Shown here in pieces: positions 1 to 62,891 of a DNA stretch of 64,000 nucleotides. Every line of letters begins with the position of its first letter. The stretch's first letter is position 1. The position numbers and the translations under genes are program-made. The notes beneath the pieces were generated by a model that was not told where the DNA came from, searched no databases, and worked only from the letters and a program-made list of their open reading frames with translations. The DNA is from Clostridium sp. CAG:245 (GTDB lineage Bacteria; Bacillota; Clostridia; TANB77; CAG-508). The DNA is taken from assembly GCA_000435175.1 (NCBI GenBank), contig FR880073.1:1625-65624 (forward strand), given 5' to 3'.

Positions 1-764
1 TTCTAGTTTTTTTATTTAACCTTAAGTCCTCTTTTTTCAAAAAAATTGTAAGTTGTTCTAGACAATATTTTAAGTATTCTTTAGACTCATGAAACAATAA
101 AAAATCATCTTGATAACGAATTACTCCTTTTATGTGTAGTTCATTTTTTATGAAATGATCCATGTCATTTAGGTAAAATACGGCTAGTACTTGACTTGTC
201 ATGTTACCGAATGCTTAGACCTTCGGAATCACTATCTATAACTTTAAAAACTACATCAAGAGCCTTTTTATCTTTGATTTTTCGTTCTAATTTTCTTTTT
301 AAAATGTCATGATTAATACTCGCAAAAAATTTGCTTATATCGCATTTTAAAATGTAATAAGTACCATATTTTTGCTTAAAGTAGTTACGATAATATATAT
401 AAAGTTCTAAGCCTCTTTTCATTCCCATGTCTTTTCTACTTGCAACATTAAAGTTTAGTAAACAAGGCATTAGAGCAGGGTAGAGTATATGCCTAGAAAT
501 TAAATGGTTTATAACTTTGTCTTGCATATTTTGGCTTACAATTCGTCTTTCTTTTGGCTCATAAATTGTAAAAATATTATATGGTCCAACTTCGTATTCC
601 TCGTTTTTTAAGATGTTATAAATACGTGAAACATACACACATTTATACTCTCTAAAAAATTCGACTTTTCTTTTATTTTTAGTATTTCTACAAACTTCAT
701 TATAAGCATTAACAATATTGTTAAAATCATAGGTTGCTTCATACAAGTGGCTTTTTCTTTTCAT
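1..764 (-). pseudogene. DGR-type reverse transcriptase, interrupted by a 1-nt frameshift near position 209; 3' end runs off the window
   Basis: ATG at 764 with SD AGGAGG upstream. RT motifs present: YEPKERRIVSQNMQDKVINH and YILKCDISKFFASINHD. The frame stops at TAA 204-206 just after GLSIR. Shifting one nt continues as IGNMTSQVLAVFYLNDMD...IRYQDDFLLFHES (motif 4 IGxxxSQ, motif 5 YxDD) through position 1. Confidence 0.75.
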
Positions 765-1197
765 CAGAAACCTCCTGCATAACTTGCTTAAAATCATGTT
801 GCAAATTAAAAAGAGTATCAAAGGCCTGACTTATTGATAGCATGTCTATGTTTAAATCTAAAAAATTATTTAAGGTTTTTTCAAATAATTGATTATTTAC
901 AAAGAAATTTAAATCAACAGAATTTGAAATTGTTTTGAAATCTTCATCACAAACAATATGAACTGAGTAACCTGCAATTTTAAATTTTTCTATATATTTG
1001 TCTAATGAATTTGTTGGAAAACCACACTTTACGACAGAATTGTTTAAATTGCTTAATTTAAAACCAAATTGTTGAGACATAGCTCGTGCGTCATCATCTA
1101 AAAAAATATAGAAAATTCCGCTTTTAAACAAATAAAACTTATTCGAATCTTGAGATTTTAGCGAGATATAGTTATTAAATAATTTACTCATAAACAT
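739..1197 (-). CDS. MutS domain I-only protein (MutS-like accessory gene coupled to the RT)
   Basis: 152 aa. NNYISLKSQDSNKFYLFKSGIFYIFLDDDARAMSQQFGFKLS...KCGFPTNSLDKYIEKFKIAGYSVHIV aligns by eye with the E. coli MutS N-terminus ([34 protein letters not shown]...MAGIPYHAVENYLAKLV). No ATPase domain. Its 3' end overlaps the RT start by 26 nt. Confidence 0.7.
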   Translation of the reverse strand: MFMSKLFNNYISLKSQDSNKFYLFKSGIFYIFLDDDARAMSQQFGFKLSNLNNSVVKCGFPTNSLDKYIEKFKIAGYSVHIVCDEDFKTISNSVDLNFFVNNQLFEKTLNNFLDLNIDMLSISQAFDTLFNLQHDFKQVMQEVSDEKKKPLV

Positions 1198-4069: not shown

Positions 4070-4251
4070 AAAACCACCATCTTTTCTTTAGATAGAATTA
4101 TTGTATATTAATATGGGGCAAAAATCAATAAAAAGCACAAAAATGGTTGAAAAATCTTGCTACAATTTATTGCTTTTAAATTTAAAATGTAATATAATTA
4201 AATATGTATAGGAATTTAAAATAATAAAAAATAAATAAAAGGATGGAGAGT

Positions 4252-9256: not shown

Positions 9257-9299
9257 AAATTTCGCCCAATAGGGACACCCCTTTTTGGGCGAAATTTTT
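9257..9299 (+). repeat. Dispersed palindromic intergenic element, copy 1 (probably also the adhesin terminator)
   Basis: aaatttcgcccaa-tagggacaccccttt-ttggcgaaattt-type hairpin with a 13-bp outer stem, an internal GGG-ACA-CCC mini-stem and a T-run after it. Near-identical cores at 14939-14978 and 30796-30830. Confidence 0.8.
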
Positions 9300-9380
9300 A
9301 TGCCAAATTTATTTACTTTAAAAATTCTCTATGTTATAATTCTATTTGAAAAGCGTTTTATACTAAGGAAGGTAATTGGA

Positions 9381-10340
9381 ATGAATCAAATTTTAGTGAC
9401 GAAAAATGATAAATCAAAAAAGGTAAAAGAAAAGAAGGTGCGAGAACCAAAGGCACCAGGGGATATTACTGGTGTTGCAAAAGCTTTTGCTGGAATAATT
9501 CTTTTGTTTGGATTAGCTTTATCTGCTGATGGAGCTTATGCTTATACAAAAAACGTGGAACTTGCTAAAAATACTAAAGCACCAATTGTTTCTGTTTTAA
9601 AAACCGGAAATACAGCAAAATTATCTATTGAATGTACCAGCGGAATAAGAACAGTATCATTTACATGGAACAATTCTAATCCTACAATTGTTCAAGGACG
9701 TGGCAATAAAATATTGGAGCAAATAATATCAATTCCATCTGGAGAGAATAACAAATTAAATATAACAGTTATAGATTCTAACGGACAGACAAAGAGATAT
9801 GTAAAGACTTTAAACCAGGATGCAAAAGATATTACAGAACCAGTAATAACTATTGAAGGCATAAATTCTAATATAAAAATTACTGTAACAGATGATACGG
9901 CAATAGATTATGTAACATATAAATATGGTGATTCACAAGAAGTTACAATCAACGCAGAAGAAGAGGGGCAAACAACAATAGAAGAAACAATTCCTGCACA
10001 GCAAGGGGAAGCAACACTTACGATAGAAGCTGTTGATAAGGCTCAAAATGTTGCTACAAAAGAGCAAAAAATAAAAGGAACAAAACGTCCTACGGTAGAA
10101 GTAAAACGAGATCCTAATGATGCATCATACATATTAATAAAAGCAACAGATGATGATGGCTTAAGATTACTTTGCTACGACTTAAATGGACAAGGATATA
10201 CAACAGACCCTAATATTTCAATAAATGATACAAAATTTGAATATAGACAAAAGCTTGATTCTGGAACAAATAAAATATCTTTACGTGTTTATAATATAAA
10301 TGAACAAGTAACTGAATTTAATGCAGAATATGAAAACTAA
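9381..10340 (+). CDS. Membrane-anchored protein with three Ig-like ~75-aa repeats (hypothetical)
   Basis: ATG 9381 with SD AAGGAAGG. Lys-rich N-terminus, then TM segment AFAGIILLFGLALSA. Repeats have the pattern ...KITVTDDTAIDYVTY... and ...LIKATDDDGLRLLCY.... Confidence 0.55.
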   Translation: MNQILVTKNDKSKKVKEKKVREPKAPGDITGVAKAFAGIILLFGLALSADGAYAYTKNVELAKNTKAPIVSVLKTGNTAKLSIECTSGIRTVSFTWNNSNPTIVQGRGNKILEQIISIPSGENNKLNITVIDSNGQTKRYVKTLNQDAKDITEPVITIEGINSNIKITVTDDTAIDYVTYKYGDSQEVTINAEEEGQTTIEETIPAQQGEATLTIEAVDKAQNVATKEQKIKGTKRPTVEVKRDPNDASYILIKATDDDGLRLLCYDLNGQGYTTDPNISINDTKFEYRQKLDSGTNKISLRVYNINEQVTEFNAEYEN

Positions 10341-28228: not shown

Positions 28229-29104
28229 CTAATTTATTTTTTTGAAAGATTTAATAATATTGCAAACTTCTTCTTCAGACATATCAACAATTGAAGCTAT
28301 TTGAGCTATTGAGAAAGTTTGATTGATAAGGTTTTTTATTATTTTTATTGCTTCCTGTTTTTGGCCATCAGATAAGCCTGTATGATAAATTGATTTTTGG
28401 TCTCTTTCGTATTTTTCACGTAAGAATGCAATTCTTTTTAATTTTTCATCTTGGCTCATTTCTTTTACTGTAACTACGGCTTTTTCTATAGATTTGTTGC
28501 TTTCCATAATCTCAGAAACCTCCTTGTCTTCAGGGTTATTAACAAACATGATCCATTGAGATTTTAAATTTTGTTTGTCCTTCATGTATGTTTCCCTTGC
28601 TTTTCTTAATTCTATTATATCTATTTCGAGTTTGTCTGTCAATTCAAGAAAATGCTTTTTATCGAAAAGTTTAAACTGAGTTTCCATCTCTTTTACGGCT
28701 TTTGTTACATCAAGGTCAAAGTCGATAATGGCTATAAGAATTATTTTCTTAGCAGAGAGGTATTTATCACCTTTATGCAATTGCATTTCATATAGTCTTG
28801 AAAAATAAAATAGAAGTCGTTCTATAAAATCATCTTGTTTCATTAATTGAACTTCTATATCAACCTTTTCTATACCATTGACTTCAGCCTCTAAGTCGAG
28901 TATTCCGAACTTGTCATCAGGTAATTCTCTATACAAATCTTTTGTATCGTTTATTTTTATGCTTTCAATTTTTTCGTTTAATAAAGCAGAAATAAAGTCT
29001 TTTGTGATTTCTTCATTTTTAGCCGAAAATAAACACTGAAAAACAAAATCGTTTTTAGGTTTAAGCAAATGGGTGTCTTTAGTATATGTTGAGTTATCAA
29101 ACAT
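28229..29104 (-). CDS. Rpn-family recombination-promoting nuclease / putative transposase (PD-(D/E)xK, YhgA-like)
   Basis: N-terminus LLKPKNDFVFQCLF...ITKDFISALL...ILDLEAEVNG..KVDIEVQ is the typical Rpn/PDDEXK_2 pattern. Confidence 0.75.
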   Translation of the reverse strand: MFDNSTYTKDTHLLKPKNDFVFQCLFSAKNEEITKDFISALLNEKIESIKINDTKDLYRELPDDKFGILDLEAEVNGIEKVDIEVQLMKQDDFIERLLFYFSRLYEMQLHKGDKYLSAKKIILIAIIDFDLDVTKAVKEMETQFKLFDKKHFLELTDKLEIDIIELRKARETYMKDKQNLKSQWIMFVNNPEDKEVSEIMESNKSIEKAVVTVKEMSQDEKLKRIAFLREKYERDQKSIYHTGLSDGQKQEAIKIIKNLINQTFSIAQIASIVDMSEEEVCNIIKSFKKIN

Positions 29105-36939: not shown

Positions 36940-36968
36940 TTGACATTTAAATTTTGTATTGTTATTAT
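36940..36968 (+). promoter_or_regulatory. Sigma-A-type promoter of the T7SS-like locus
   Basis: TTGACA - 17 nt - TATTAT, about 50 nt upstream of the first WXG100-like gene. Confidence 0.5.
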
Positions 36969-37018
36969 GATTTTGAAAATATCATTCTAAAATGATAATC
37001 TTAAAGGAGGAAAAGAAT

Positions 37019-37633
37019 ATGGCAAAAATAGATCATGTAGATTATGAGGCAATGCCAAGACAAGCAAAAGCAATGAGAGAGTATGCATTAGAATTAAATA
37101 ATGAATTAAGAACAGCATACTCAAACGTAGGAGAAATGCATAATTCATGGTATGGAGTTAGATACAATGAATTAGTAAAAGATTTTAATGAATTAATACC
37201 ACAAGTAAATGATTTACTAAAATTGGTAGTTACAGAAATACCATTTGCAGTTGAAACAATAGCTAACAACTATGCTCAAGCTGATAAAGGACAAAATGTT
37301 ACATCAGCAGAAGAAACATCTGCCAATAACATTGAAAACTTACCAATAACAAACGATGTTGGAATGAGATTCATGACAGCAGAAGTTGCTAATACACAAA
37401 GAAGCGTATCTGAAAAATTTGATGCATCAAAGGAATTAATGAATAAAATTGAAGCTGAATATAACAGAGTTGAATGGCAAAGTGAAGCTTCTGAAAGCTT
37501 TAAAGCAAGATTCAACAAATTAAAGAATGACATATTAATGGCATTTGACAACATTAATAATGAATTTTCAAAATTAATGACTCAAACACAACAAGATATT
37601 GAAACAACAGAAAAAGCAAATACAGTACAATAA
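37019..37633 (+). CDS. Double-length WXG100-like protein (two ESAT-6-like halves), paralog 1
   Basis: 204 aa with SD AAAGGAGG. The first half has central W-x-G (HNSWYGVRYNELV) between helical arms. The second half repeats the pattern (EWQSEASESFKARFNKL). Paralog at 46200-46820. Confidence 0.7.
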   Translation: MAKIDHVDYEAMPRQAKAMREYALELNNELRTAYSNVGEMHNSWYGVRYNELVKDFNELIPQVNDLLKLVVTEIPFAVETIANNYAQADKGQNVTSAEETSANNIENLPITNDVGMRFMTAEVANTQRSVSEKFDASKELMNKIEAEYNRVEWQSEASESFKARFNKLKNDILMAFDNINNEFSKLMTQTQQDIETTEKANTVQ

Positions 37634-37635
37634 AA

Positions 37636-37658
37636 AGAAAGCACTATATGTGCTTTCT
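37636..37658 (+). terminator. Stem-loop after the first WXG100-like gene (attenuator or mRNA-stabilising hairpin)
   Basis: 9-bp stem agaaagcac / gtgctttct with loop tatat. No clear T-run. Confidence 0.35.
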
Positions 37659-37725
37659 AAAGCGACACTGGTTTTAGAAAGCATATATATAATATGTTTA
37701 ATTACAAATGAAGGGAGAAAATAAT

Positions 37726-38013
37726 ATGGAAGGAAAATTCTTACCAATAGGAAGTGTAGTAAGATTAAAAGATGGCCAAAAAAGATTAATGATAACAGGA
37801 TTTTTACAAATGGAACAAGGTGAAAATGGTCAAAAAAATATATGGGATTACAGTGGATGCCTATACCCAGAGGGAATGCTAACATCAGAGGCTAACTATG
37901 TATTCAATCATTCACAAATAGAAGAAGTACATTTTATTGGACTAGTAGATGAAGAAGAAGAGGAGTTCAAGAAAAAGTTAAAAGAAGCAATAGAAGAACT
38001 TGAAAATAAATAG
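37726..38013 (+). CDS. DUF4176-family protein (T7SSb-associated)
   Basis: FLPIGSVVRLKDGQKRLMITGF...WDYSGCLYPEG...VFNHSQIEEVHFIG matches the DUF4176 pattern. ATG 37726 follows SD GAAGGGAG. Confidence 0.7.
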   Translation: MEGKFLPIGSVVRLKDGQKRLMITGFLQMEQGENGQKNIWDYSGCLYPEGMLTSEANYVFNHSQIEEVHFIGLVDEEEEEFKKKLKEAIEELENK

Positions 38014-38027
38014 GAAAGTGTAAAAAA

Positions 38028-41000
38028 ATGCTAGTCACATTAATAGGAAAAAATGTTTTGTATAAATTAATATTACCTCATGAAAAAACAGGTAATTATT
38101 GGATAACAAATAGTGACGATGGAAAGAAACTTGTAAACATTATTGGAAAAAATAATGAATGGAACATATATAGTAATGAACAAGCAAAAATCTTGGATCC
38201 AAGAGCAATAAATTCATGGAATATCTCAAAAATAGTAAAAAACAAAGCAAATATTTTTAGTGAGATAAAGTTACAAGAAAATGGCATATATTATATTTCT
38301 TTAGCGAGTAATCCAAATATGCTGTATATATTGCTTTGTGAACCGACATATGAGAGAGATTTTATTCAGTTAAATGCTAAAAATTTTCAAGAAATAACAA
38401 TTGGAAGAAAAGCAGATAGCGATATTATATATAATAATTCTTTAATAAAGCAAGAACAAGCCAGAATTTTTTACAGCAATGGAAAGTTGATGGTAGAAAA
38501 TTTTGATGAAAGTTATGGAACTTTTCTAAATGATTTACCAGTGGCAAATAGATTAAAGTTACTATTTAATGGTGATATTATATTTATAATGGGATTAAGG
38601 ATTATAATTGTTGGAAACAATGTTTTCATAAATAATCCTTTTAATAGAGTAACATATAATTTAAATAAACTGGAAATTGTAAAAAAAGAAAACAGAATAA
38701 TAACAAGTAGTGAAGTAACAGATGAAGATGTTCAACTTTTTACAGATAAGGATTACTTTACGAGAGCACCAAGGATAACTAATCAAATTGAAAAAGAAAA
38801 AATAAAAATAGATGCTCCACCACAAAAACAAGAGAAAGACGAAAAACCATTAATATATACAATAGGACCAAGTCTGGCTATGGGAATTGTAATGGTATTA
38901 TCTATGAGTTCAACAATTAGCGATGTTTCAAGTGGAACGGCATCTTTTAAAAGTACCGGACTATCTGCGTTAATGACAGTCTCAATGTTAATTAGTATGA
39001 TTTTGTTTCCAATACTTAATAATAAGTATGAGAAAAATAAGAAGATAAAGAAAGAAGCTAAACGTCAGAAAAAATATAAAGAATATATAAATAAAAAAAT
39101 TCAACAAATAGACGATGTAATGCTTAAACAAAAGAAGATACTTTTTGAAAAATATTTATCTGCTGAGGAATGTGCTAGAATAATACTAAATAGAGAATCT
39201 AGGCTATGGGAAAGAAGAACAGAGGACGATGATTTTCTTACTGTGAGGTTAGGACTTGGAAATTTGCCAATAGCGGCAGATATAGAGTATCCTAATAAGG
39301 AATTTTCTTTGGAGGAAGATAACCTAGTAGAATTAATAAATTCTGTAGCAAAAAAATCTAAGGTGATAAAGAATGTTCCAATCACGGCTTCTCTTACATC
39401 AAAAAATATTGCGGCTGCAATTATTGAAAATGATGATAGAACAACTGAAAAGTTTGCACAAAATTTAATTATGCAATTAATTGCGTTGCATAGTTATGCA
39501 GATTTAAAATTAGTATTCTTATTAAAAAAAGAGAAAACCATAAGATGGGAGAACATGAAAACCTTACCACATGTGTGGGATGAACAAAAACAAATTAGAT
39601 TTTGGGCAGACGAATATGAGGACATGAAGGATATTTCAAGATATCTTGAAATTGAATTAAATAATAGAAGAAAGTATGATGACAAATTTGATTACCGTTC
39701 ATTTGCACCATATTATTTAATAATAACAGATGATTACCAAAAAATAGAAGGACTTAAAATAATAACAGAAATTTTAAACGCAAAGAGGAACTTAGGATTT
39801 GGATTGTTCTGTTTAACAGATAATATGTTACATTTACCAAATGAATGTCAACTGTTTATTAGTATAGACGGAACAAATGGTAGCTTATTTGAAAATCAAA
39901 TTACATCGACTACAAAAAAAGAGTTTTATTTTGATCCATCTTTCACGTTCTTTTTCGAAAATATTGGGCAAAGGTTATCTAATATACCAATTAAGCTTAA
40001 TGCAACATCAAAGTTTGCATTACCAGAGGTGTATACTTTTTTGGAAATGTATGATGCTGGTAGAATTGAGCAGTTAAATATATTACAAAGATGGATGACA
40101 AATGATTCTACAAAATCTTTGCAAGCACCAATAGGAATCGATACTAATGGAATGCCAATTGTGTTAGATATTCATGAAAAGGCACATGGACCACATGGAT
40201 TAATAGCAGGAAGTACTGGATCCGGAAAGAGTGAATTTATAATCACATATATCCTTTCACTTGCGGTTAACTACCATCCAAATGATGTATCTATGATATT
40301 AATAGATTACAAAGGTGGAGGCCTTGCAGGAGCGTTCCAAAAAGGTGATGTGAAATTACCTCATATAGTTGGAACCATAACAAATATTGATAAAGCCGGA
40401 CTTCAAAGGTCTTTAGTTTCTATACAGAGTGAGCTAAGAAGAAGACAAGTAAAGTTTAATCAGGCAAGAGAAAAAACAGATGAAGGAACTATTGATATAT
40501 ACAAGTATCAAAAATTATACCATGATGGAATTGTAAAAGAGCCAATACCGCACTTATTGATAATATGTGATGAATTTGCAGAGTTAAAACAGCAACAACC
40601 TGACTTTATGGATGAATTAATAAGTGTTGCGAGAATAGGACGTAGTTTAGGAGTACACTTAATACTTGCAACTCAAAAACCGGCTGGCGTTGTAAATGAC
40701 CAAATTCGTAGTAATAGTAGGTTCGGTATATGTTTAAAAGTACAAGACAGACAAGACAGTATAGATGTTATAAAAAGACCAGATGCGGCAGATTTAAAGA
40801 GGGTTGGACAATTTTATATTCAAGTTGGTAATAACGAATATTTTGCATTAGGACAATCTGCTTGGGCTGGAGCAAGTTATGAGCCATCAGACATAATCAA
40901 GAAAAAAGTAGATACTTCAATGAAATTTGTATCAAATATTGGTTCTGTAATAAAAAAAGTAGATGATACATTAAAGTCTCCAACAAGAAAAGATGGTGAA

Positions 41001-42608
41001 CAGTTAACCAACATTGTAAAATATATTTATCAGCTTGGAAAACATGAAAACATTAAACTTAAACCATTATGGTTGGATAATATACCAAATGTTATTATGT
41101 TAGATAACATTAAGAAAAAATACAATATACAGAAAAAAGAAAATGAAGTAATACCTGTAGTTGGAGAATATGATGATCCATATAACCAAAGACAAGGACC
41201 AGTTGAAATTGACTTTAAGAAACAGGGAAATGTTATTGTTTATGGAAATGCTGAGAGTGGTAAAGAAACATTCATAAGCACAATGGTATATGACATAATA
41301 TCAACATACTCTGTTAAGGAAGCTCAAATGTATTTAATTGACTTTGGTAGTGAAGCCTTGAAAATCTTTAAGGATGCACCACATATAGGTGATGTAGTAT
41401 TAAGTACAGATACAGAAAAAATAAATAGATTGTTCGAAATACTACAAAGAGAAATGAAAAGAAGAACAGAAATTTTATCAAACTATGATGGTGATATAAA
41501 ATTATATATAAATGATACAGGTGCTGAAATGCCACAAGTATTTATAATTATAAACAATTATGAAGGATTTGTGGAAAACTTCGGAGAAAAATATGACGAT
41601 GTATTGCTTACTCTATGTAGAGAGGGAATAAAATATGGAATCATATTTGTAATTACAGCAAGTGCATATAACAGTGTAAGATATAGACTATCTCAAAACT
41701 TTAAACAAAAAATAGCATTACAATTAAATAATGAAGATGATTATTTAAATATAATAGATGGAGTTAGAAAACAAAGACCTGCTCACATGTTTGGAAGAGG
41801 ATTGATAAAATATAGTGACATATATGAATTCCAAACAGCTCGTATATGCGAACCAGAAAAATGGAATGTATTTATAAGAGATAAGATAAAACAATTAAAT
41901 GAAAAATATGACGAAAAGGCAGATCCTATTCCAGTTTTACCAGATCAAATAAAGGTAGAAGAGATAAAAGAATTTGTAAAAAGCTTGGATAAATTACCAG
42001 TTGGAATTTACAAAGATAGTTTGAACTTAGCAATATATAATTTTAAGAGCAATTTAGTAAATTTAATTTCAGCAAAAAATATAGAAGTAGCTACAGAATA
42101 TGTAACACATTTATACGAGGAATTAAAACTACTAGAAGACATTGATGTAACCGTATTTGATGCAGAGGGAATTGTACAAACTGCTAGTAAAAACATAAAA
42201 CTTGACTATCAGAACTATTCATTAAGAATACAAAACAATATAAGTAAATCAAAATACAATGTATGTATAATAGTTGGAATTGATAAGTTCTTAATAAACA
42301 TAGAAAAAGAAATTTTGTCAGATCTTAGAAAAGCTGAAGAATTAAAGAATTATACATTTATAGTAGTTGATAGTGTATTTAAATTAAAGAACCATGAATA
42401 TGATGACTGGTATAAAGCGTATATCACAAAAGATTCTGGAATTTGGGTAGGCAATGGTGTTGCAGATCAATACTTAATAAGAATGAACACAAGCACTAGA
42501 AATTTAGTAAACAACTGTGGAGAAAGCTTCGGATACTTAATAAAACAAGAAGAAGCTAAGCTGATAAAATTAATAGGAATGAAAGATACTGGTGAAAAAA
42601 ATGGATAA
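38028..42608 (+). CDS. essC: Type VII secretion FtsK/SpoIIIE-family ATPase EssC
   Basis: 1526 aa. Two N-terminal FHA-like domains (ITIGRKADSDIIY...YGTFLND), two TM helices and three P-loop modules. D1 has GSTGSGKSE and ICDEFAEL, D2 has GNAESGKET, and D3 is degenerate. Confidence 0.9.
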   Translation: MLVTLIGKNVLYKLILPHEKTGNYWITNSDDGKKLVNIIGKNNEWNIYSNEQAKILDPRAINSWNISKIVKNKANIFSEIKLQENGIYYISLASNPNMLYILLCEPTYERDFIQLNAKNFQEITIGRKADSDIIYNNSLIKQEQARIFYSNGKLMVENFDESYGTFLNDLPVANRLKLLFNGDIIFIMGLRIIIVGNNVFINNPFNRVTYNLNKLEIVKKENRIITSSEVTDEDVQLFTDKDYFTRAPRITNQIEKEKIKIDAPPQKQEKDEKPLIYTIGPSLAMGIVMVLSMSSTISDVSSGTASFKSTGLSALMTVSMLISMILFPILNNKYEKNKKIKKEAKRQKKYKEYINKKIQQIDDVMLKQKKILFEKYLSAEECARIILNRESRLWERRTEDDDFLTVRLGLGNLPIAADIEYPNKEFSLEEDNLVELINSVAKKSKVIKNVPITASLTSKNIAAAIIENDDRTTEKFAQNLIMQLIALHSYADLKLVFLLKKEKTIRWENMKTLPHVWDEQKQIRFWADEYEDMKDISRYLEIELNNRRKYDDKFDYRSFAPYYLIITDDYQKIEGLKIITEILNAKRNLGFGLFCLTDNMLHLPNECQLFISIDGTNGSLFENQITSTTKKEFYFDPSFTFFFENIGQRLSNIPIKLNATSKFALPEVYTFLEMYDAGRIEQLNILQRWMTNDSTKSLQAPIGIDTNGMPIVLDIHEKAHGPHGLIAGSTGSGKSEFIITYILSLAVNYHPNDVSMILIDYKGGGLAGAFQKGDVKLPHIVGTITNIDKAGLQRSLVSIQSELRRRQVKFNQAREKTDEGTIDIYKYQKLYHDGIVKEPIPHLLIICDEFAELKQQQPDFMDELISVARIGRSLGVHLILATQKPAGVVNDQIRSNSRFGICLKVQDRQDSIDVIKRPDAADLKRVGQFYIQVGNNEYFALGQSAWAGASYEPSDIIKKKVDTSMKFVSNIGSVIKKVDDTLKSPTRKDGEQLTNIVKYIYQLGKHENIKLKPLWLDNIPNVIMLDNIKKKYNIQKKENEVIPVVGEYDDPYNQRQGPVEIDFKKQGNVIVYGNAESGKETFISTMVYDIISTYSVKEAQMYLIDFGSEALKIFKDAPHIGDVVLSTDTEKINRLFEILQREMKRRTEILSNYDGDIKLYINDTGAEMPQVFIIINNYEGFVENFGEKYDDVLLTLCREGIKYGIIFVITASAYNSVRYRLSQNFKQKIALQLNNEDDYLNIIDGVRKQRPAHMFGRGLIKYSDIYEFQTARICEPEKWNVFIRDKIKQLNEKYDEKADPIPVLPDQIKVEEIKEFVKSLDKLPVGIYKDSLNLAIYNFKSNLVNLISAKNIEVATEYVTHLYEELKLLEDIDVTVFDAEGIVQTASKNIKLDYQNYSLRIQNNISKSKYNVCIIVGIDKFLINIEKEILSDLRKAEELKNYTFIVVDSVFKLKNHEYDDWYKAYITKDSGIWVGNGVADQYLIRMNTSTRNLVNNCGESFGYLIKQEEAKLIKLIGMKDTGEKNG

Positions 42609-42852
42609 AGTCTTAGTAAAAGTTTATGTTCCTATGTTGGAAGGAGTCTATGATGTATGGATTCCTTCTAACAAAAAAATATATGAGATAATTATATTAT
42701 TATCAAGAGCAATATCAGAACTAAGTGAGGGAGATTATGATCCTAAAGCGCTTCCTACGCTATATGATAAAATCAGTGCACAAGAGTTTGATTTGAACTC
42801 ATTTTTAAAGGATACAACAATAAGAAATGGAACAGAAGTAATATTAATATAA
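42601..42852 (+). CDS. esaB: YukD/EsaB-like ubiquitin-fold protein
   Basis: ~83 aa. VLVKVYVP...YDVWIPSNKKIYEII...LYDKISAQEFDLNSFLKDTTIRNGTEVILI fits the YukD family. Overlaps the essC stop, so translation is probably coupled. GTG 42592 is an alternative start. Confidence 0.7.
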   Translation: MDKVLVKVYVPMLEGVYDVWIPSNKKIYEIIILLSRAISELSEGDYDPKALPTLYDKISAQEFDLNSFLKDTTIRNGTEVILI

Positions 42853-42877
42853 ATTTTAGTTTTGAAAGGAATTTTGA

Positions 42878-43699
42878 ATGAAGACACTAAATGTAGATAA
42901 CACGTACAAAAGTAATACTAATCTTACAATAAATGAATTATTACAAGAAAATAAAAAGATAGTTTCTTTTATCGGAGCTAGTCAAAGTGGCACATCTTTT
43001 TTAGTAAATAATATTGCAAGAATAATGGCAAGAAGAAACTTTGATGTGGCTATATTAGATATGACGCAAAATAAAGATTCATACTATATATATACTCAAA
43101 ACAAAGAGTCTATAAGAGTTAGTATTAGAAACAGTTTTAAGGATTTAAGTGAAGGAAAACTGAATGGATTACAAATTGAAAATAACCTAACTGTATATAC
43201 AGATGTACCAGGAAAGAATAAATATAGTGCAAGAGTTGAAAATATATTAGAGACGCTTTTGAAGAAACATCAGGTTGTAATTATAGACACAGATTTTTCT
43301 ACAGATGCTGATTACTTTGCGTATTCAGAGCAAGTATATTTGGTACAAACAATGGATATATTAACCATTCAACCACTTACAGAATTCCTTTCAAATCTAA
43401 AATCTAAGAATGCAATAAACAATGAGAAAATAAGGATTATATTAAATAAGTTTATGAATTTTGATGAAATAACAGTGAGCAAATTGATAGGCGGAATGGC
43501 TTTTTATAATGATCCTTCGATGACATATATGCAACAAATATTTGAAAAAAATGGAGTAAGGTATACAACAGTTTCATATAATCAACAGGCCTACGAAAAA
43601 TACATACAAGATGTTGCAAATTGTCAATTTACAACAAATTATTCTATAGAATTTAGAAAAGAGTTAGAAATGTTAACAGATGATGTTATAAAAGGATAA
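42878..43699 (+). CDS. ParA/MinD/CpaE-like P-loop-fold protein with a degenerate Walker A (no lysine)
   Basis: KKIVSFIGASQSGTSFLVNNIARIMARRNFDVAILDMTQN...VVIIDTD has SIMIBI-class layout, but the GK(S/T) position reads GTS. Confidence 0.55.
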   Translation: MKTLNVDNTYKSNTNLTINELLQENKKIVSFIGASQSGTSFLVNNIARIMARRNFDVAILDMTQNKDSYYIYTQNKESIRVSIRNSFKDLSEGKLNGLQIENNLTVYTDVPGKNKYSARVENILETLLKKHQVVIIDTDFSTDADYFAYSEQVYLVQTMDILTIQPLTEFLSNLKSKNAINNEKIRIILNKFMNFDEITVSKLIGGMAFYNDPSMTYMQQIFEKNGVRYTTVSYNQQAYEKYIQDVANCQFTTNYSIEFRKELEMLTDDVIKG

Positions 43700-43719
43700 A
43701 AGTTAGGAGGTATTTTATT

Positions 43720-43980
43720 ATGGGGTTTATTGGAAATTTTTTTAAACAATTATTTGGTGGGGATAGTAGCTCAAATAACAGTAGTTCTGGTAGCTCAAGT
43801 AATACGTGGACAGGCTCAACTGGAGTATCTGGTAATGTGAGTAATTCCTTAAAAACAAAATATAAAAATGTAGATGGACAAAATAAGTTAAAGGGAGTAT
43901 TATTTACAGGTTTAATAAATAATACAAACGATATAATTGACAATGCAAATACTAAAAAAGCAAATACAAAAATACACTAA
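43720..43980 (+). CDS. Small Ser/Gly/Asn-rich protein with an amphipathic N-terminus (hypothetical)
   Basis: 86 aa with strong SD AGGAGG. MGFIGNFFKQLFGG followed by a low-complexity SSSNNSSSGSSSN tract. Confidence 0.5.
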   Translation: MGFIGNFFKQLFGGDSSSNNSSSGSSSNTWTGSTGVSGNVSNSLKTKYKNVDGQNKLKGVLFTGLINNTNDIIDNANTKKANTKIH

Positions 43981-43994
43981 CTAAGGAGGAAATT

Positions 43995-45647
43995 ATGTTT
44001 GAATTTGTAGAGAAAGTTGCCACAGATATAATCACAAGTTTGGGGAACACGATTAGTCAAATGAGTTTTGATGCTTCAAGCTATGATGCACAGGCAACTG
44101 AAAATGATGCGAAAGCAGCACAATGTGAAGCAGATGCTAGTGCAGAAGAGGCAAGTTGTCCACATTATAAATCAGAACCATATGAGACAACAGATGATGA
44201 TGGAAATACAGTAACAAAGTATGAGCAGGTTCCAGATACAGCTGCTGATGCTGCTGCGATGGCAAGAGCAGCAACTCTAAGAGCAGAAGCAGCAAACTTA
44301 AAAGCAATTGCGGCAGCTCTAAGAGGTTTAGCAGCAGCTTTAAGAGGTACATTATTTTCAATGACTAGTCAACAAAAGCAAATCTCACAAGCTTCTCAAG
44401 ACTCACAATTTGCAATAGTTGCTACCACTAAATTATTAAGAGAGGGTATAGATGTTACTAAAAGAGTAATAGCAGCATTTAATGTACCAGAAGCTAGCAA
44501 TTTCAAAGAGTGGACATCTGCCGTAGGAGATAATCTGCTAAATGCAATTGGAGTAGACTTATCAGATGGACTTAATGATGAGATATATACAGCAATTGGT
44601 GTTGTTACTACAGTAGGTGCTATTGCGGGACCACTAGTAGTTAGACGTACAACCTCAATAATAGGTGCTAAAATGGGTAATGGCATAATTGGAAATATTG
44701 GTAGATATGAAGCAAACATTGTGTCTGAGGCAATAATAAAAACATACTTTAATGAAACAGGTGCGAAAGTGGCACAAAACGCAATAGCATCTGCATTAAC
44801 CTTTATTGGAATAGATTCATTGCCAACACAGGGAAAAAAAGCAGTTCCGAATGCTGCAACTATAAATGGTACAGAACAAGATTCAAAGATGACTTTTGAA
44901 GAAGCAAAAACAGATGCAAAAGAAAAATATGCTAAATATGTTGAAAAATTCAATTGTTATACAGAAGAACAAAAAAAAGATCTGATTAATAAGTATAATG
45001 AGCAAATAGATAAAGCAGTAGTGCTTTCAGATGAAGAATTTTTTAGACAATTAGGAGAATATAACGAAGGAATTGTTGCATATAATAATGGGGCTCAAGA
45101 TAGGGTGTATATCAGAGAAGGGTATGCTAATGATCCAAGTGTAATAATACATGAAGTTGGTGGACATGGTACAGGTACAATGTCTCAGACAGCAGGATAT
45201 TATTACACAGATCCAGAGACAGGAGAGAATGTATTATATACTGGAAAGTATGAAGATTCACCATACAAATTAACATGGAAGGGAAACTATAATGGAATAG
45301 ATGAGGCAGCAACAGAATATTTTGCAAGGAAAATAAATGGCGAAAAATGGGAAGATTGCGCATACAATCCTAGCACTGATGCATTACAAAAAATAACAGA
45401 TTCAATGACAAAATATACAGGTGTAAATGGAGAAGAAGTATTAATGAAAACATATACTGGTGAAAATAAAGATTTATTTAAAAATGTATATAATGAAATA
45501 TCTGGAAATGAAAAGGCCTATGATGCATTGGATGCAATGATGAAAGATTCTAATACAGGTAACCAAAGGGGTGGAACTCAAGCGTTAAATACAGTAACTA
45601 GAAATTTTGACAGAGATTGTCAAATAGCAAAAGTAAAGAATATATAA
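43995..45647 (+). CDS. 550-aa putative T7SS substrate/effector: Ala-rich helical N-terminal region, hydrophobic segments, C-terminal domain with an HEVGGH motif
   Basis: SD AAGGAGG. AADAAAMARAATLRAEAANLKAIAAALRGLAAALRG helix pair. Hydrophobic IYTAIGVVTTVGAIAGPLVV. C-terminal IIHEVGGHGTG...IDEAATEYF resembles a zincin-like site but is non-canonical (HExxxH). Confidence 0.5.
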   Translation: MFEFVEKVATDIITSLGNTISQMSFDASSYDAQATENDAKAAQCEADASAEEASCPHYKSEPYETTDDDGNTVTKYEQVPDTAADAAAMARAATLRAEAANLKAIAAALRGLAAALRGTLFSMTSQQKQISQASQDSQFAIVATTKLLREGIDVTKRVIAAFNVPEASNFKEWTSAVGDNLLNAIGVDLSDGLNDEIYTAIGVVTTVGAIAGPLVVRRTTSIIGAKMGNGIIGNIGRYEANIVSEAIIKTYFNETGAKVAQNAIASALTFIGIDSLPTQGKKAVPNAATINGTEQDSKMTFEEAKTDAKEKYAKYVEKFNCYTEEQKKDLINKYNEQIDKAVVLSDEEFFRQLGEYNEGIVAYNNGAQDRVYIREGYANDPSVIIHEVGGHGTGTMSQTAGYYYTDPETGENVLYTGKYEDSPYKLTWKGNYNGIDEAATEYFARKINGEKWEDCAYNPSTDALQKITDSMTKYTGVNGEEVLMKTYTGENKDLFKNVYNEISGNEKAYDALDAMMKDSNTGNQRGGTQALNTVTRNFDRDCQIAKVKNI

Positions 45648-45669
45648 AATTAAATGAAAGGATTATAAA

Positions 45670-46188
45670 ATGGAAAATTTTAAAGATATTATAGATAAAT
45701 TTGTAATAAAATTTTCAGAATCAACTAAAGATGCTTTTGACAAAAAAAGATTAACAGAAGCTTTTGAAAAATACTTATATAAACAAGTAGAAGCAGAAGA
45801 AAAAATAAATCAAAATTTTAATATTGATGATAAAAGTGATATGGAATCTTTGTTGAAATATGTTACTGATGATGTAATTAAATTACCATTAGAGCAAAAA
45901 AGACAAATGTTAATCAGAGACGAAAGTTTTGAAACAATTCGTAGCATATCAAACAATGCTTTTGAAATGGCACAAGAAGCTTATACTAGCAAAAGTGATA
46001 ACATTGATGAAACTAAAGTAGATGAAATGCAAAAAAAATTAAATGAGTTATTAAAGAGTGTAAAAGCTTTTAATAAACAACAGGCTATTTGGCTTGTATC
46101 AGAAGGAATATTGGACTTGAATTTTGTAAAGAATCCTAAAACAGATATTATGAGTATAAGATTAGGAAGATGTTTACAAAGCAAGTAA
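45670..46188 (+). CDS. Hypothetical 172-aa helical protein (candidate immunity protein or chaperone for the upstream gene)
   Basis: SD AAAGGA. No recognisable motifs. The suggested role rests on position only. Confidence 0.4.
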   Translation: MENFKDIIDKFVIKFSESTKDAFDKKRLTEAFEKYLYKQVEAEEKINQNFNIDDKSDMESLLKYVTDDVIKLPLEQKRQMLIRDESFETIRSISNNAFEMAQEAYTSKSDNIDETKVDEMQKKLNELLKSVKAFNKQQAIWLVSEGILDLNFVKNPKTDIMSIRLGRCLQSK

Positions 46189-46199
46189 AAGGAGAAAAG

Positions 46200-46820
46200 A
46201 TGGAAAACCAGATAAAAATTGATTATGAAAATATGCCTAATCAATCTAATAGTATTAGAGGGCAGGCTATAGAAATAAATAATAAATTATTAGCAATTTA
46301 CAGAAAAATTTCCGAAATGCATATTTGTTGGTATGGGAAGAGATATAATGAATTGGTAACTAAATTTAACGAATTAGCTCCACAATTAAACTTATTTCTA
46401 GAAGCAATAGTTGGAGAAGTTCCATATATGTTTGAAGAGATAGCAAACACTGTTTCTGACGTAGATATAAAGCAGAATGTAGCTGTACCACAAAAAGAGA
46501 GTATACAAAAAATACAGGCATTACAAGTATATGATGATGTAGGAATGAGATATATATCTAAAGAAGTAGAAGAAATAAACAATGATATTATGAAAATTTT
46601 TCAAGAAATAGAAGATATAATGCAAGAAATAGATAGAACAGTTGATCAAATAAAATTGGAGTGTGATGGTTCAGAAGAATTTAGAAGACAATTTGTAAGA
46701 CTATCTGATGCATTTCAGTATACAATAGGTAATGTTGAGAGTCAATTCTCTAAGCTTATGCAACAAGATAGAGAACTTATGGAAGAGACAGAAAGAAAGA
46801 ATAATGTGGCTAATAGTTAG
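46200..46820 (+). CDS. Double-length WXG100-like protein, paralog 2
   Basis: 206 aa with SD AAGGAG. ...MHICWYGKRYNELVTKFNELAPQLN... is colinear with paralog 1 (DYENMP / DYEAMP, VGMRYIS / VGMRFMT, FSKLMQQ / FSKLMTQ). Confidence 0.7.
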   Translation: MENQIKIDYENMPNQSNSIRGQAIEINNKLLAIYRKISEMHICWYGKRYNELVTKFNELAPQLNLFLEAIVGEVPYMFEEIANTVSDVDIKQNVAVPQKESIQKIQALQVYDDVGMRYISKEVEEINNDIMKIFQEIEDIMQEIDRTVDQIKLECDGSEEFRRQFVRLSDAFQYTIGNVESQFSKLMQQDRELMEETERKNNVANS

Positions 46821-46840
46821 AATAATATGATAATTGAATG

Positions 46841-46885
46841 AACCTAAATTGTTGGATAAATATTTAACAGTTTGGGTTTATTTTA
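46841..46885 (+). terminator. Rho-independent terminator ending the T7SS-like locus
   Basis: 13-bp stem aacctaaattgtt / aacagtttgggtt (with G-U pairs) followed by a T-rich run. Confidence 0.6.
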
Positions 46886-51770: not shown

Positions 51771-52067
51771 ATGCCAGAAGAATTGAAAAAATATTTTTGG
51801 GACACTGATTTTCAAAAGTTAGATATAGAAAAGAATAAGAGATATATAATTGCAAGACTATATTGTTATGGTGATCTAAGAGCGATAAAATGGGTAAAAG
51901 AAACATATAGTAAAGTCGATATAGAAGATACGGCAAGAAACTGTAGAAATTTAAAGCCGATTGTTGCTAATTACCTTAGACAACAGTATAACTTAAAAAA
52001 GGAAGAGATGGCTTATTATAGAGCTATTATGGCAATGAATTATGATTTTTGGAGAGGAAATTGCTAG
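51771..52067 (+). CDS. DUF6922-like small protein (putative antitoxin/partner of the AbiEii-like NTase)
   Basis: 98 aa with SD GGAGG. KKYFWDTDFQKLDIEKNKRYIIARLYCYGDLRAIKWVKETY matches the pattern I associate with DUF6922. Its stop is 1 nt before the next ATG. Confidence 0.55.
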   Translation: MPEELKKYFWDTDFQKLDIEKNKRYIIARLYCYGDLRAIKWVKETYSKVDIEDTARNCRNLKPIVANYLRQQYNLKKEEMAYYRAIMAMNYDFWRGNC

Positions 52068-52068
52068 A

Positions 52069-52716
52069 ATGTATTGGAGTATATTAGATAATAAAAGAAT
52101 TGAATTATTAAGAAAAATTGTAAAAACTATAAGTTTAAATAATTATTATATGGTAGGAGGAACAGCATTATCTTTACAATTAAATTTAAGAGAATCATTT
52201 GACTTTGATTTCTGCGTTCCTGACATGTTTAATAGTGATGTATTGATTAGCGAATTAAAAAGTATTGGAAATACTGAAGTAAAGCAAAATCAAAAAGGAA
52301 CTATTGACGTTTTACTAGATGGAGTGCAGGTTAGTTTCTTCTTTTATCAAAACAATTTGGTAGAAAATATCGTGAAGAATGATGAAATACCTAATTTGAG
52401 AATGGCTAGTATTTTAGACATAGCGGCAATGAAAGTAGCCGCTATAGGTGGAAGAGGAGCTAAAAAGGATTTTTTTGATTTATATAATATAATGAAAAAA
52501 TGTAATATTGATACAGAAAAATTAGCTAGTGCTGTAATAAAGAAATTTGGAACAAACGTAAATTATGTGAATATGATTATGGGATTAAGCTATTTTGAAG
52601 ATGCAGAAAGTGAAGAATTACCTAAAACATTTGTAGAATATGATTGGAACACTATAAAGAAATACTTTATAGATATTCAACCTAAATTTCAAATGGCATT
52701 AGAAAAATATTTGTAG
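52069..52716 (+). CDS. Nucleotidyltransferase, AbiEii/AbiGii toxin family-like
   Basis: Pol-beta NTase signature GGTALSLQLNLRESFDFDF. Downstream DIAAMKVAAIGGRGAKKDFFDLY is typical of AbiEii/DUF1814 proteins. Confidence 0.65.
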   Translation: MYWSILDNKRIELLRKIVKTISLNNYYMVGGTALSLQLNLRESFDFDFCVPDMFNSDVLISELKSIGNTEVKQNQKGTIDVLLDGVQVSFFFYQNNLVENIVKNDEIPNLRMASILDIAAMKVAAIGGRGAKKDFFDLYNIMKKCNIDTEKLASAVIKKFGTNVNYVNMIMGLSYFEDAESEELPKTFVEYDWNTIKKYFIDIQPKFQMALEKYL

Positions 52717-62093: not shown

Positions 62094-62891
62094 ATGCCAA
62101 AGGGTGAAACTATAAAAGATTTATATTCCGAAATTAGAAAATGCCTTTTTTATATGATACCAGAAAAATGGGAAAGCATATATCTTTATGCGTCAGTTAT
62201 ACAAAGGGATAATGGTGAAGAAACAGGAGAAATGTTTTTTTACTATTTTCCCAAGAGTATAATAAAAAGAAATCCAATAAATGTGTATCAAATTCCACAA
62301 AAATTCAATCTAAACGAAGAAGAATATATAAAACTTACAGATGAATTGTATAACTATATAAAAAAATTAAGACACGAATGCCAGAAATATGACAAGATAA
62401 ACTGGACAAATATAACAATCAGTATAGAAAATGTTGAATTTTTGGCAGAATATAACTGTGAAGATTTAATAAATTCTATATATTCAAATGAAGATAGGAT
62501 GGCAATTTGGCAGTACAAATATCTTGAATATCCAATAGAAAAATTTACAAAATCACAGAGAGAACAAATAGAAGCATATTTGAAAGAAGAAGAAAATGGC
62601 TTACATCAATCAAAAATGTATACAGAAACCTTCTATCAACAGCATGAACACAATAGTATAGAGTATGATGTAAACAAAAAAGTGGATGAATATATAAAAG
62701 AAGATAATGAAACAACAGACTTTACAATGGTTGATAGTGAACAGTATCAAATACAGTCTGGAGGCTTTTTTAAGAGAAGAAAAAATAGATTGTTAAATGA
62801 AAGAAATGACATAGCACAGTTTGAAAATACGAGCTGCAATGAAAACAAAGAAAACGAAATTGTTGTAAGAAATCAAATATTAAAATATTAA
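62094..62891 (+). CDS. YezG/DUF600-family immunity-like protein with a ~115-aa C-terminal extension
   Basis: LYSEIRKCLFYMIPEKWESIYLYASV...EMFFYYFP...IPQKFNL.EEEY...LRHEC...WTNITISIENVEFLAEYNCEDL...RMAIWQYKYL follows the YezG (LXG-toxin antitoxin) pattern. Confidence 0.65.
   Translation: MPKGETIKDLYSEIRKCLFYMIPEKWESIYLYASVIQRDNGEETGEMFFYYFPKSIIKRNPINVYQIPQKFNLNEEEYIKLTDELYNYIKKLRHECQKYDKINWTNITISIENVEFLAEYNCEDLINSIYSNEDRMAIWQYKYLEYPIEKFTKSQREQIEAYLKEEENGLHQSKMYTETFYQQHEHNSIEYDVNKKVDEYIKEDNETTDFTMVDSEQYQIQSGGFFKRRKNRLLNERNDIAQFENTSCNENKENEIVVRNQILKY

Follow-up and report, generated by a model that had tools for sequence, protein, structure and literature searches.

A putative type VII secretion locus of uncultured gut Clostridia that combines a TseC-related ATPase with a ParA/MinD-like protein

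Results

A nine-gene block around an EssC-type ATPase

We analysed a 64,000-nucleotide stretch of DNA from Clostridium sp. CAG:245 (contig FR880073.1, positions 1,625 to 65,624 of the forward strand, assembly GCA_000435175.1), hereafter called the window, which harbours a putative type VII secretion system (T7SS) locus. At positions 36940-46885, nine co-directional open reading frames (ORFs) on the + strand, g1 to g9, follow one another with short or overlapping junctions. They code for a WXG100-type protein, a DUF4176 protein, an EssC-type ATPase, a YukD/EsaB-like protein, a ParA/MinD-like protein, a small low-complexity protein, a 550-residue protein, a 172-residue protein and a second WXG100-type protein, respectively. 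The original prediction, made from the sequence alone, had described a minimal, type VIIb-like locus devoid of EssA, EssB and EsaA. All nine ORFs, their strand, their positions and their order were confirmed, and so was the location of the block between murT-gatD and rlmN, with genes for MurT-like and GatD-like proteins upstream and genes for RlmN, Stp1 and a PASTA kinase downstream. The likely true starts of g1, g2, g4 and g9 are a few codons downstream of those of the longest ORFs. EssC is the only protein of the locus with clear transmembrane segments.

The limits proposed for this promoter-to-terminator block coincide with recognizable patterns. A sigma-70-type promoter-like site (TTGACA, 17-nt spacer, TG-TATTAT) precedes g1 at 36940-36968 (+). 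With 11 of 12 matches and a TG extension, it scores highest of all such sites between 36700 and 47100. It is a match to the consensus only, and promoter-like sites in that region are in total no more numerous than expected from shuffled sequences. The block is closed by a terminator-like hairpin at 46837-46882 (+), with a 20-pair stem and a T-rich tail, and an additional terminator- or attenuator-like hairpin is found between g1 and g2 at 37645-37689 (+), with a 19-pair stem followed by a T-rich tail. Both hairpins are pattern matches only.

The ATPase groups with TseC rather than with type VIIb ATPases

The largest gene of the block, g3 (38028-42608, +), codes for an EssC/TsxC motor ATPase of 1526 residues. 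It reaches 1015 bits against the TIGR03928 profile (cutoff 778), matches Pfam FtsK_SpoIIIE with an E value of 3.7e-52 and harbours FHA-type domains at its N terminus, two transmembrane segments (residues ~275-297 and ~312-330) and an intact Walker A motif in its D1 module (GSTGSGKSE).

A survey built on RefSeq by Garrett, Higginson and Palmer (2024; PMC11217815) has added eight subtypes, T7SSc to T7SSj, to T7SSa and T7SSb, all of them without the VIIb membrane proteins. We rebuilt the first ~1200-1290 residues of the ten published representative ATPases from supplementary figure S2 of that study. Because these rebuilt sequences are optical character recognition (OCR) text, the identities given here for them come out slightly too low. 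Among the ten, TseC is the closest to the window EssC, with 40% identity and 865 bits over an alignment that starts at residue 1 and includes the first FHA-type domain, whereas the best score between two published subtype ATPases is 764 bits. Its identities to S. aureus EssC and to TsfC are 33.6% and 34%, respectively. In a neighbour-joining tree with 100 bootstraps, anchored by one OCR-derived representative per published subtype and three real TseC proteins, the window EssC and its close homologues form a monophyletic family (100/100), which is sister to TseC (99/100), followed by TsdC (97) and TsiC (96). TsbC and TsfC are placed elsewhere and group with each other. Members of the EssC family are at least 59% identical to one another and 37-40% identical to the three real TseCs, which share 47-55% identity among themselves.

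The FHA-type domains also bear on subtype. In an alignment of seven members of the EssC family, the GR residues of the phosphothreonine-binding motifs are kept in some proteins, SxxH is present in one only and NG in none, whereas the same residues are conserved in TseC. Such degeneration fits the absence of a kinase partner in the locus.

Profile searches at E<=1 yielded no Pfam or NCBIfam match to EssB/YukC, EsaA/YueB, EssA or LXG in the nine locus proteins, and none was obtained at stricter thresholds for the remaining ORFs of sizeable length in the 64-kb window. The reported absence of the three canonical membrane proteins thus stands for both sets of ORFs. An ordinary T7SSb whose EssA, EssB and EsaA are encoded in a second locus outside the window would accommodate the score of EssC above the cutoff of TIGR03928, a Firmicutes EssC profile, the DUF4176 and YukD-like proteins, which are typical companions of such systems, and the fact that our searches covered the 64-kb window. 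However, the ATPase shares only ~34% identity with S. aureus EssC and falls apart from TsbC in the tree, ten independent related loci are devoid of EssA, EssB and EsaA genes within +/-10 kb, and in described T7SSb these genes cluster with essC (PMC11217815). This explanation is therefore very improbable. The label 'type VIIb-like' has to be given up, since the ATPase falls in the T7SSd/e clade. From its sequence relationships, the locus is not of type VIIb, and appears to represent instead a sister lineage of T7SSe without any T7SSe-specific accessory gene.

A conserved gene triplet in many genomic contexts

Next, we looked for like loci (numbered with the prefix L) by gene-neighbourhood mining, reading the contexts of nine clusters of g5 homologues and of genome matches. 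The window is near-identical to a contig from a metagenome-assembled genome (MAG) of uncultured Clostridia from Hadza gut metagenomes (L001), and the architecture proposed from the window alone recurs in at least ten genomic contexts. The genes for EssC (1526-1529 residues), for a protein of 83-88 residues and for the ParA-like protein always occur together in these chromosomal neighbourhoods, and their flanking genes differ from one to the next of the window/L001/L028, L002, L005, L007, L009/L061, L029, L030, L129 and L130. This triplet usually follows a gene for a fused WXG100 protein of ~205 residues and one or two DUF4176 genes. In L030, found in one species, only the genes for the fused WXG100 protein, EssC, the YukD-like protein and the ParA-like protein are present, between housekeeping genes. 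The conserved core thus consists of EssC, the YukD/TseB-like protein, the ParA/MinD-fold protein and, usually, the fused double WXG100 protein.

Of note, EssC is called as two ORFs in L129 (4133-8729), one of 334 residues with the FHA domains and one of 1209 residues, and the YukD-like and ParA-like genes are intact. The gene may be truly split here, or the sequence may contain a frameshift or an assembly error.

The YukD/TseB-like protein

The gene g4 (42592-42852, +) overlaps the end of essC and codes for a predicted small ubiquitin-fold protein. Its match to Pfam YukD is weak (E=0.12) and nearly full-length (profile positions 2-75 of 76); three of five orthologues match as well, the best at 0.023. 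No sequence in the PDB was matched by a YukD-like profile. The protein is homologous to the product of the gene located immediately after that of TseC in 14 T7SSe loci (tblastn, 31-39% identity, E values down to 3e-16), and this homology to TseB decides the question of its YukD-like nature more firmly than the Pfam match. A gene of this type is found directly 3' of that of EssC in every locus of the family. The YukD/EsaB-like assignment of g4 was therefore borne out, its fold being predicted.

A ParA/MinD-like protein apparently dedicated to the locus

The gene g5 (42878-43699, +) codes for a protein of 273 residues with a Pfam CbiA match (1.9e-5). An AlphaFold model built on 22 homologues has a mean predicted local distance difference test (pLDDT) score of 77 and a predicted TM-score (pTM) of 0.81, and in Foldseek searches it matches ParA, FlhG, BcsQ, MinD and ParF with TM values of 0.6-0.73 and E values of 4e-9 to 1e-7. 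Sequence similarity to ParA proteins of solved structure is confined to the P-loop. These data agree with the ParA/MinD-like assignment made at the outset, and TadZ is a further relative by fold.

The P-loop, which starts at residue 33, does not match the canonical deviant Walker A motif KGGxGK[ST]. The 22 aligned homologues share the invariant motif G-x-x-[QK]-S-G-T-[ST], in which Thr replaces the P-loop Lys and the signature Lys is gone. We considered that g5 might be a catalytically dead pseudo-ATPase. According to the passage of PMC10482377 that cites Xu et al. 2012, however, TadZ of E. rectale also lacks both Walker A lysines and has nevertheless been reported to be active. We therefore do not call g5 inactive. 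Compared with TadZ/CpaE, FlhG/FleN and BcsQ, g5 shares the fold, the location of its gene within a secretion locus and, with E. rectale TadZ, the loss of the lysines; it differs from them in having a T7SS as its partner and in being devoid of an N-terminal receiver domain and of a recognizable C-terminal amphipathic membrane-targeting helix.

Homologues of g5 make up 225 clusters in the protein collection, and every one of these comes from a metagenome or a MAG. In 76 of the 88 loci with a g5 relative, the latter is the C-terminal domain of a larger polypeptide (396-1078 residues) in a housekeeping context, always beside a GGDEF gene, ireB, ruvX and a DUF1292 gene. Examples of this paralogue are found in L004 (4763-7999), L026 (10001-11251) and L027 (10001-11191), and some of them harbour long proline- and glutamine-rich repeats. 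With so many relatives in contexts other than T7SS, the g5 gene might be a passenger with a housekeeping job unrelated to secretion. However, its short form (273-296 residues) always follows the YukD-like gene at a distance of 12-32 nt, irrespective of the flanking genes, the T7SS-linked copies separate from the housekeeping paralogues in 99 of 100 bootstraps with subclades that mirror the EssC tree, and T7SSf already includes a MinD/TadZ-like component encoded among its T7SS genes, so that the passenger explanation has very little to commend it. The g5 protein rather appears to be a T7SS-specific offshoot of a widespread housekeeping paralogue, and its separate clade with EssC-like branching indicates a single recruitment followed by co-evolution.

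The T7SSf component in question, TsfV of Clostridia, consists of a TadZ-type receiver domain and a MinD/ParA-type P-loop domain, and its Foldseek matches in the authors' table include TadZ, MinD, Soj and BcsQ (PMC11217815). Scans for T7SSf loci had to use approximate OCR-derived queries. With these, a TsfJ fragment retrieved unrelated FHA proteins, a protein search with TsfC retrieved nothing, and a genome scan with the N terminus of TsfC retrieved only one frameshifted, mislabelled MAG contig.

Selection on the core genes

We calculated ratios of nonsynonymous to synonymous substitution rates (dN/dS) against L028, whose ortholog is 82% identical. They amount to 0.06 for EssC, 0.18 for the YukD-like protein, 0.10 for the ParA-like protein and 0.08 for the DUF4176 protein. 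More distant pairs, for which dS is saturated, also gave values well below 1. The core genes are thus under purifying selection, and this speaks against a relic. The lack of most T7SSe accessory components and of the canonical Walker A lysines in the ParA-like protein might nonetheless be read as signs of a decaying remnant of a larger T7SS that has lost secretion. We find this hard to reconcile with the intact EssC ORFs of 1526-1529 residues in lineages 59-83% identical to each other (dN/dS 0.06-0.17), with the intact Walker A motif of D1, with the gene order kept at different genomic sites or with the active turnover of the cargo genes described below. As for the lysines, the TadZ case, as related in that passage of PMC10482377, indicates that their loss need not end activity. 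Decay is accordingly a most unlikely explanation.

Comparison with T7SSe

As T7SSe is the closest described subtype, we compared it with the window locus gene by gene. The T7SSe of Bacillota comprises TseA, A2, B, C, D, F, H, I, J and K (PMC11217815). A metagenome scan with TseC retrieved 23 genuine T7SSe loci whose genes are arranged as published, in that genes for a PP2C phosphatase, a kinase, a single-pass protein and a giant TseI of 2121 residues are followed by those for TseC, TseB and two WXG100 proteins of 100 residues. The window locus resembles them in its EssC, to which TseC is the nearest clade, in the YukD-like gene immediately after the ATPase gene and in the presence of two WXG100 units. 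Unlike T7SSe, its block is devoid of the TseD kinase, the TseF PP2C phosphatase, TseH/K, the Ig-repeat protein TseI and the DUF6382-FHA protein TseJ, its WXG100 units are fused (~205 residues) and encoded upstream of EssC, its FHA motifs are degenerate, its EssC shares only 38-40% identity with the three real TseCs and it has an additional ParA/MinD-like gene, which is absent from all 23 T7SSe loci. We found no kinase, PP2C, DUF6382-FHA or TseI-like gene in the nine-gene block or in the related loci, and no small ORF for a single-pass transmembrane protein of the TseH/TseK type in the locus.

Beyond EssC and g4, the only T7SSe matches in the window are to Stp and PrkC, with generic identities of ~30% to TseF and TseD. 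The 1.2-kb distance between the block and these two genes, which come just after rlmN, together with the sister relationship between EssC and TseC, raises the question of whether the system is a reduced derivative of T7SSe that still relies on proteins from other loci, with, for instance, Stp and PrkC as surrogates of TseF and TseD, or with unlinked proteins that reside in the membrane or span the cell wall. A candidate for the latter is encoded at 4243-9255 (+): this protein of 1670 residues, with a signal peptide, DUF11/Ig-like repeats and, at its C terminus, a transmembrane helix, has the features described for TsdI and TseI (PMC11217815). The rlmN-stp-prkC neighbourhood is, however, found only in the window, L001 and L028, and the other lineages carry the locus elsewhere. 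Moreover, Stp1 and the PASTA kinase Stk1 are standard housekeeping equivalogs, the kinase scoring above the equivalog cutoff, and the FHA phosphothreonine-binding residues are degenerate in EssC. TseI of L118 (2121 residues) has no match in the window by tblastn, and the 1670-residue protein has none in the 23 T7SSe loci; the lack of sequence similarity in either direction led us to reject it as a displaced TseI. Altogether, we regard a reduced T7SSe with outside partners as unlikely, albeit as the strongest of the competing explanations. The gene for the Ig-repeat protein is followed at 9285-10340 (+) by one for a single-pass protein of 351 residues that belongs to no family.

Fused double WXG100 proteins

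The genes g1 (36992-37633, +) and g9 (46170-46820, +) are the first and the last of the block. The former codes for a candidate core TsxA-like secreted co-substrate, which matches Pfam WXG100 over residues 16-99 (8.6e-10; 39.2 bits for a gathering score of 27.3), and the latter for a protein of 216 residues with a weaker match (1.5e-6; 28.9 bits for the same gathering score). In each of them, TIGR03930 and NF035934 match two stretches, the second of which is at residues 131-208 in g1. Because they are twice the usual length and both halves match WXG100-type models, g1 and g9 are identified as fused tandem WXG100 proteins. The original description of both as WXG100-like holds, with the correction that they are of double length. 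A PDB sequence search with g1 gave a single marginal match, to an Esx-type entry.

The longest ORF of g1 codes for 213 residues; its likely start is Met10 (37019), since orthologues of 204 residues align from residue 10. The likely start of g9 is Met11. The two proteins are 37% identical. Genes of the g1 type are found upstream of the EssC gene in most related loci, and a second fused WXG100 gene similar to g9 ends the cargo cassette in L001, L002, L005, L007 and L028. Between L001 (4112-4750) and the window, g1 is only 72% identical, compared with 98.6% for EssC and 99.6% for the ParA-like protein of the same strains, which suggests recombination or diversifying selection acting on a putative secreted WXG protein.

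A variable cargo cassette

The remaining genes, g2, g6, g7 and g8, show a different pattern of conservation. Between the window and L002, EssC and the ParA-like protein are 83% and 79% identical, respectively, as compared with 43% for g7 and 48% for g6, showing that the cargo genes diverge much faster than the core. There are no Pfam or NCBIfam matches for g6, g7 and g8 (none at E<=1 for g7), nor any precomputed Pfam match for the large cargo proteins of the related loci.

The protein encoded by g2 (37708-38013, +) belongs to DUF4176 (Pfam PF13780, 9.5e-29), the family of Ltc-type toxin-specific chaperones. DUF4176 proteins bind the disordered middle domain of T7SS toxins (PMC12478183), which fits the presence of g2 alongside g7, the middle part of which is predicted to be disordered. 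In related loci, the DUF4176 gene is duplicated or absent, together with the cargo.

The g6 protein (43720-43980, +; 86 residues) is of low complexity, with a conserved C-terminal motif, KLKGxLFxxLIxxTNxxI. Its homologues (54-115 residues) are always encoded directly upstream of a g7-like gene (L001, L002, L005, L007 and L028), and L005 harbours two cassettes of the g6-g7 type. The N terminus of g6 (43720-43765), encoded directly after the ParA/MinD-like gene, has the amphipathic sequence MGFIGNFFKQLFGG, which is kept in L001 and L028 and not in L002. It resembles the C-terminal membrane-targeting helix of MinD.

The g7 gene (43995-45647, +) codes for a candidate polymorphic substrate or effector of 550 residues. 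About half of its 39 homologues share just the N-terminal 50-56% of the protein. The ~290 N-terminal residues are conserved and the C termini are swapped; in the near-identical L001, only residues 1-278 are conserved. In the AlphaFold2 model, a helix (residues 6-53), a beta-hairpin (58-80) and a second helix (82-161) form a coiled-coil hairpin with Ala-rich heptads, followed by a glycine-rich middle region (146-297) with pLDDT values below 50 and by a C-terminal domain (300-550) with values of ~90. Foldseek and PDB profile searches left the C-terminal domain without any match, whether by fold or by sequence, and the only matches for the protein were generic long helical hairpins and designed coiled coils.

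Two other readings of g7 were rejected. It had been named, after EssC, as a possible membrane protein. This proposal holds for EssC; for g7, marginal hydropathy (one segment at 1.75), fast divergence, swapped C termini and absence from L009, L029 and L030 speak against a machine component, and in favour of a polymorphic substrate. The C-terminal domain contains the motif IHEVGGHGTG...GIDEAATEY (45130-45330 of the window, residues ~380-445), which recalls the gluzincin signature HExxH...NEAxxE with one extra residue. One homologue has a canonical HESNH, and another one has Tyr for the first His. As the first His is not invariant and Pfam and Foldseek lend no support, the zincin reading (HExxxH...DEAxTE) was not retained.

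The g8 gene (45670-46188, +) codes for a cytoplasmic helical protein of 172 residues without transmembrane segment. Homologues are found only where g7 has the same C-terminal domain, in L005 (30% identity) and L028 (54%), and not in L001, L002 and L007, where the C termini of g7 differ. Such a distribution would be predicted of an immunity protein, or else of a chaperone specific to this domain, and g8 is a candidate for either role. Together with the conserved N terminus and the swapped C termini of g7, it supports the initial view of the 550-residue protein as a putative effector. Conversely, many relatives of g7 have low-complexity coiled-coil C termini and no immunity-like neighbour, so that not all of them need be enzymatic toxins.

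The cassette is best compared with LXG toxins, their Lap targeting factors and their Ltc (DUF4176) chaperones. Like them, g7 has a long helical N terminus, a disordered middle and a variable C terminus, and it is encoded together with small helical or WXG-like proteins, a DUF4176 protein and an immunity-like protein downstream. Unlike LXG toxins, it has no match to PF04740, its hairpin has a beta-hairpin tip and Ala-rich heptads, many of its relatives have non-enzymatic coiled-coil C termini, and it is partnered by WXG100 proteins of the fused double type and by a small protein that is novel. The statement that no LXG toxin is present is therefore right in the narrow Pfam sense only. Of note, 15 kb from the locus and immediately after gpmI, a gene at 62094-62891 (+) codes for a protein of 265 residues with a YezG-like immunity domain (PF04634, E=3.5e-22), and has the appearance of an orphan immunity gene, similar to those whose products neutralize LXG toxins of T7SSs.

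Other features of the window include an AbiEii-type toxin gene between prkC and rsgA (52042-52716, +), a PD-(D/E)XK family transposase gene (28229-29104, -) and, at the start of the window (204-1197, -), short fragments matching reverse-transcriptase and MutS domain I.

Discussion

We consider it reasonably probable that the locus codes for a functional T7SS of a subtype distinct from T7SSa-j, present in uncultured low-GC gut Clostridia and composed of a core machine and a swappable cargo cassette. By sequence criteria, its combination of genes appears to fall outside the ten subtypes described so far, and each of these is at variance with it in defining features that we tested. What seems to be new is the association of a TseC-sister ATPase with degenerate FHA motifs, a TseB-like protein, a TadZ-like protein devoid of a receiver domain and a fused double WXG100 protein, with no kinase, phosphatase, FHA or Ig-repeat components. 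Since the lineage is known from MAGs only and the 2024 survey was based on RefSeq, this is probably why it was missed.

T7SSs without EssA, EssB and EsaA have already been published, and the general idea is thus not new. The proposal of an undescribed architecture in which other accessory proteins replace the usual membrane complex must be nuanced in consequence: EssC is indeed accompanied by different accessory genes, in a combination outside the ten subtypes, but none of the conserved accessory proteins is a membrane protein.

Besides T7SSe, two subtypes deserve comparison. T7SSf of Clostridia comprises TsfA, B, C, F, J and V (PMC11217815). Like the window locus, it has a clostridial host, an FHA-containing ATPase that has lost part of its phosphothreonine-binding motifs, no kinase, and a cytoplasmic MinD/ParA/TadZ-like protein, TsfV. 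The window system differs from it in that its ATPase falls outside the TsfC clade, TsfF and TsfJ are lacking, and g5 has no TadZ-type receiver domain. With the T7SSb of S. aureus and B. subtilis, the locus shares FHA-type domains without phosphothreonine-binding residues in EssC, YukD-like, WXG100 and DUF4176 proteins, and a polymorphic substrate gene adjoining an immunity-like gene. Unlike T7SSb, it is devoid of EssA, EssB and EsaA, its EssC is phylogenetically separate and its substrates are not recognized as LXG proteins.

Several points weigh against our interpretation. The host organisms are uncultured and the system is known from genes alone. With the current thin sampling of TseC, the EssC family could nest inside TseC diversity that has not been sampled. 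A second locus outside the 64-kb window could supply membrane partners. Should g5 and TsfV be orthologous, the system would be better called a T7SSe/f hybrid. As regards the cargo, the C-terminal domain of g7 has no recognizable fold or family in Foldseek, PDB or Pfam searches, the candidate immunity role of g8 derives from co-occurrence in three loci, and the term 'toxin' may be wrong for part of the family, given the many g7 relatives with low-complexity coiled-coil C termini and no immunity-like neighbour.

If the locus does encode a distinct T7SS, a working model can be outlined. EssC hexamers would be its sole membrane-embedded element, serving as motor and channel in one. The YukD-like g4 protein would bind EssC, as EsaB/YukD does in T7SSb, and the ParA-like g5 protein might dimerize on the cytoplasmic face and scaffold, position or gate EssC assembly, in a manner comparable to TadZ, FlhG and BcsQ. 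It might thereby take over the role of the kinase/phosphatase/FHA module of T7SSe or of the EssB pseudokinase of T7SSb. The fused WXG100 protein g1 would be an obligatory co-secreted substrate. The g7 effector would be targeted through its helical-hairpin N terminus with the help of g6 and g9, stabilized by the DUF4176 protein g2 through its disordered middle region, and neutralized inside the producer cell by g8.

A stricter version of this model, which we put forward as a tentative possibility only, is that of a self-sufficient T7SS with four components, namely the fused WXG100 protein, EssC as the only membrane part, the YukD-like protein and the lysine-less ParA-like protein as an assembly or positioning factor, which, once recruited from a housekeeping paralogue, would stand in for the pseudokinase or kinase-FHA scaffolds found in other subtypes. 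If this is true, no smaller natural T7SS would be known, and the system would count as an eleventh subtype that has a non-LXG family of polymorphic substrates to itself.

There is as yet no agreement on how T7SS substrates pass across monoderm membranes or on the accessory proteins that this really takes, and the published a-j catalogue, drawn from RefSeq, largely misses uncultured gut Clostridia. The finding is an incremental addition to an already documented diversity of T7SSs. The cargo cassette would add a new family of N-terminal targeting domains and an unclassified C-terminal domain to the T7SS effectors of gut bacteria that are abundant in humans and animals. The g5 protein would be the second, independent ParA/MinD-type protein tied to T7SS after TsfV, which suggests that these systems repeatedly require control of their assembly or of their position in the cell. 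A lineage that has kept only EssC, a fused WXG100 pair and one protein each of the ubiquitin-like and ParA/MinD-like types would give a very small natural parts list for reconstituting type VII secretion.

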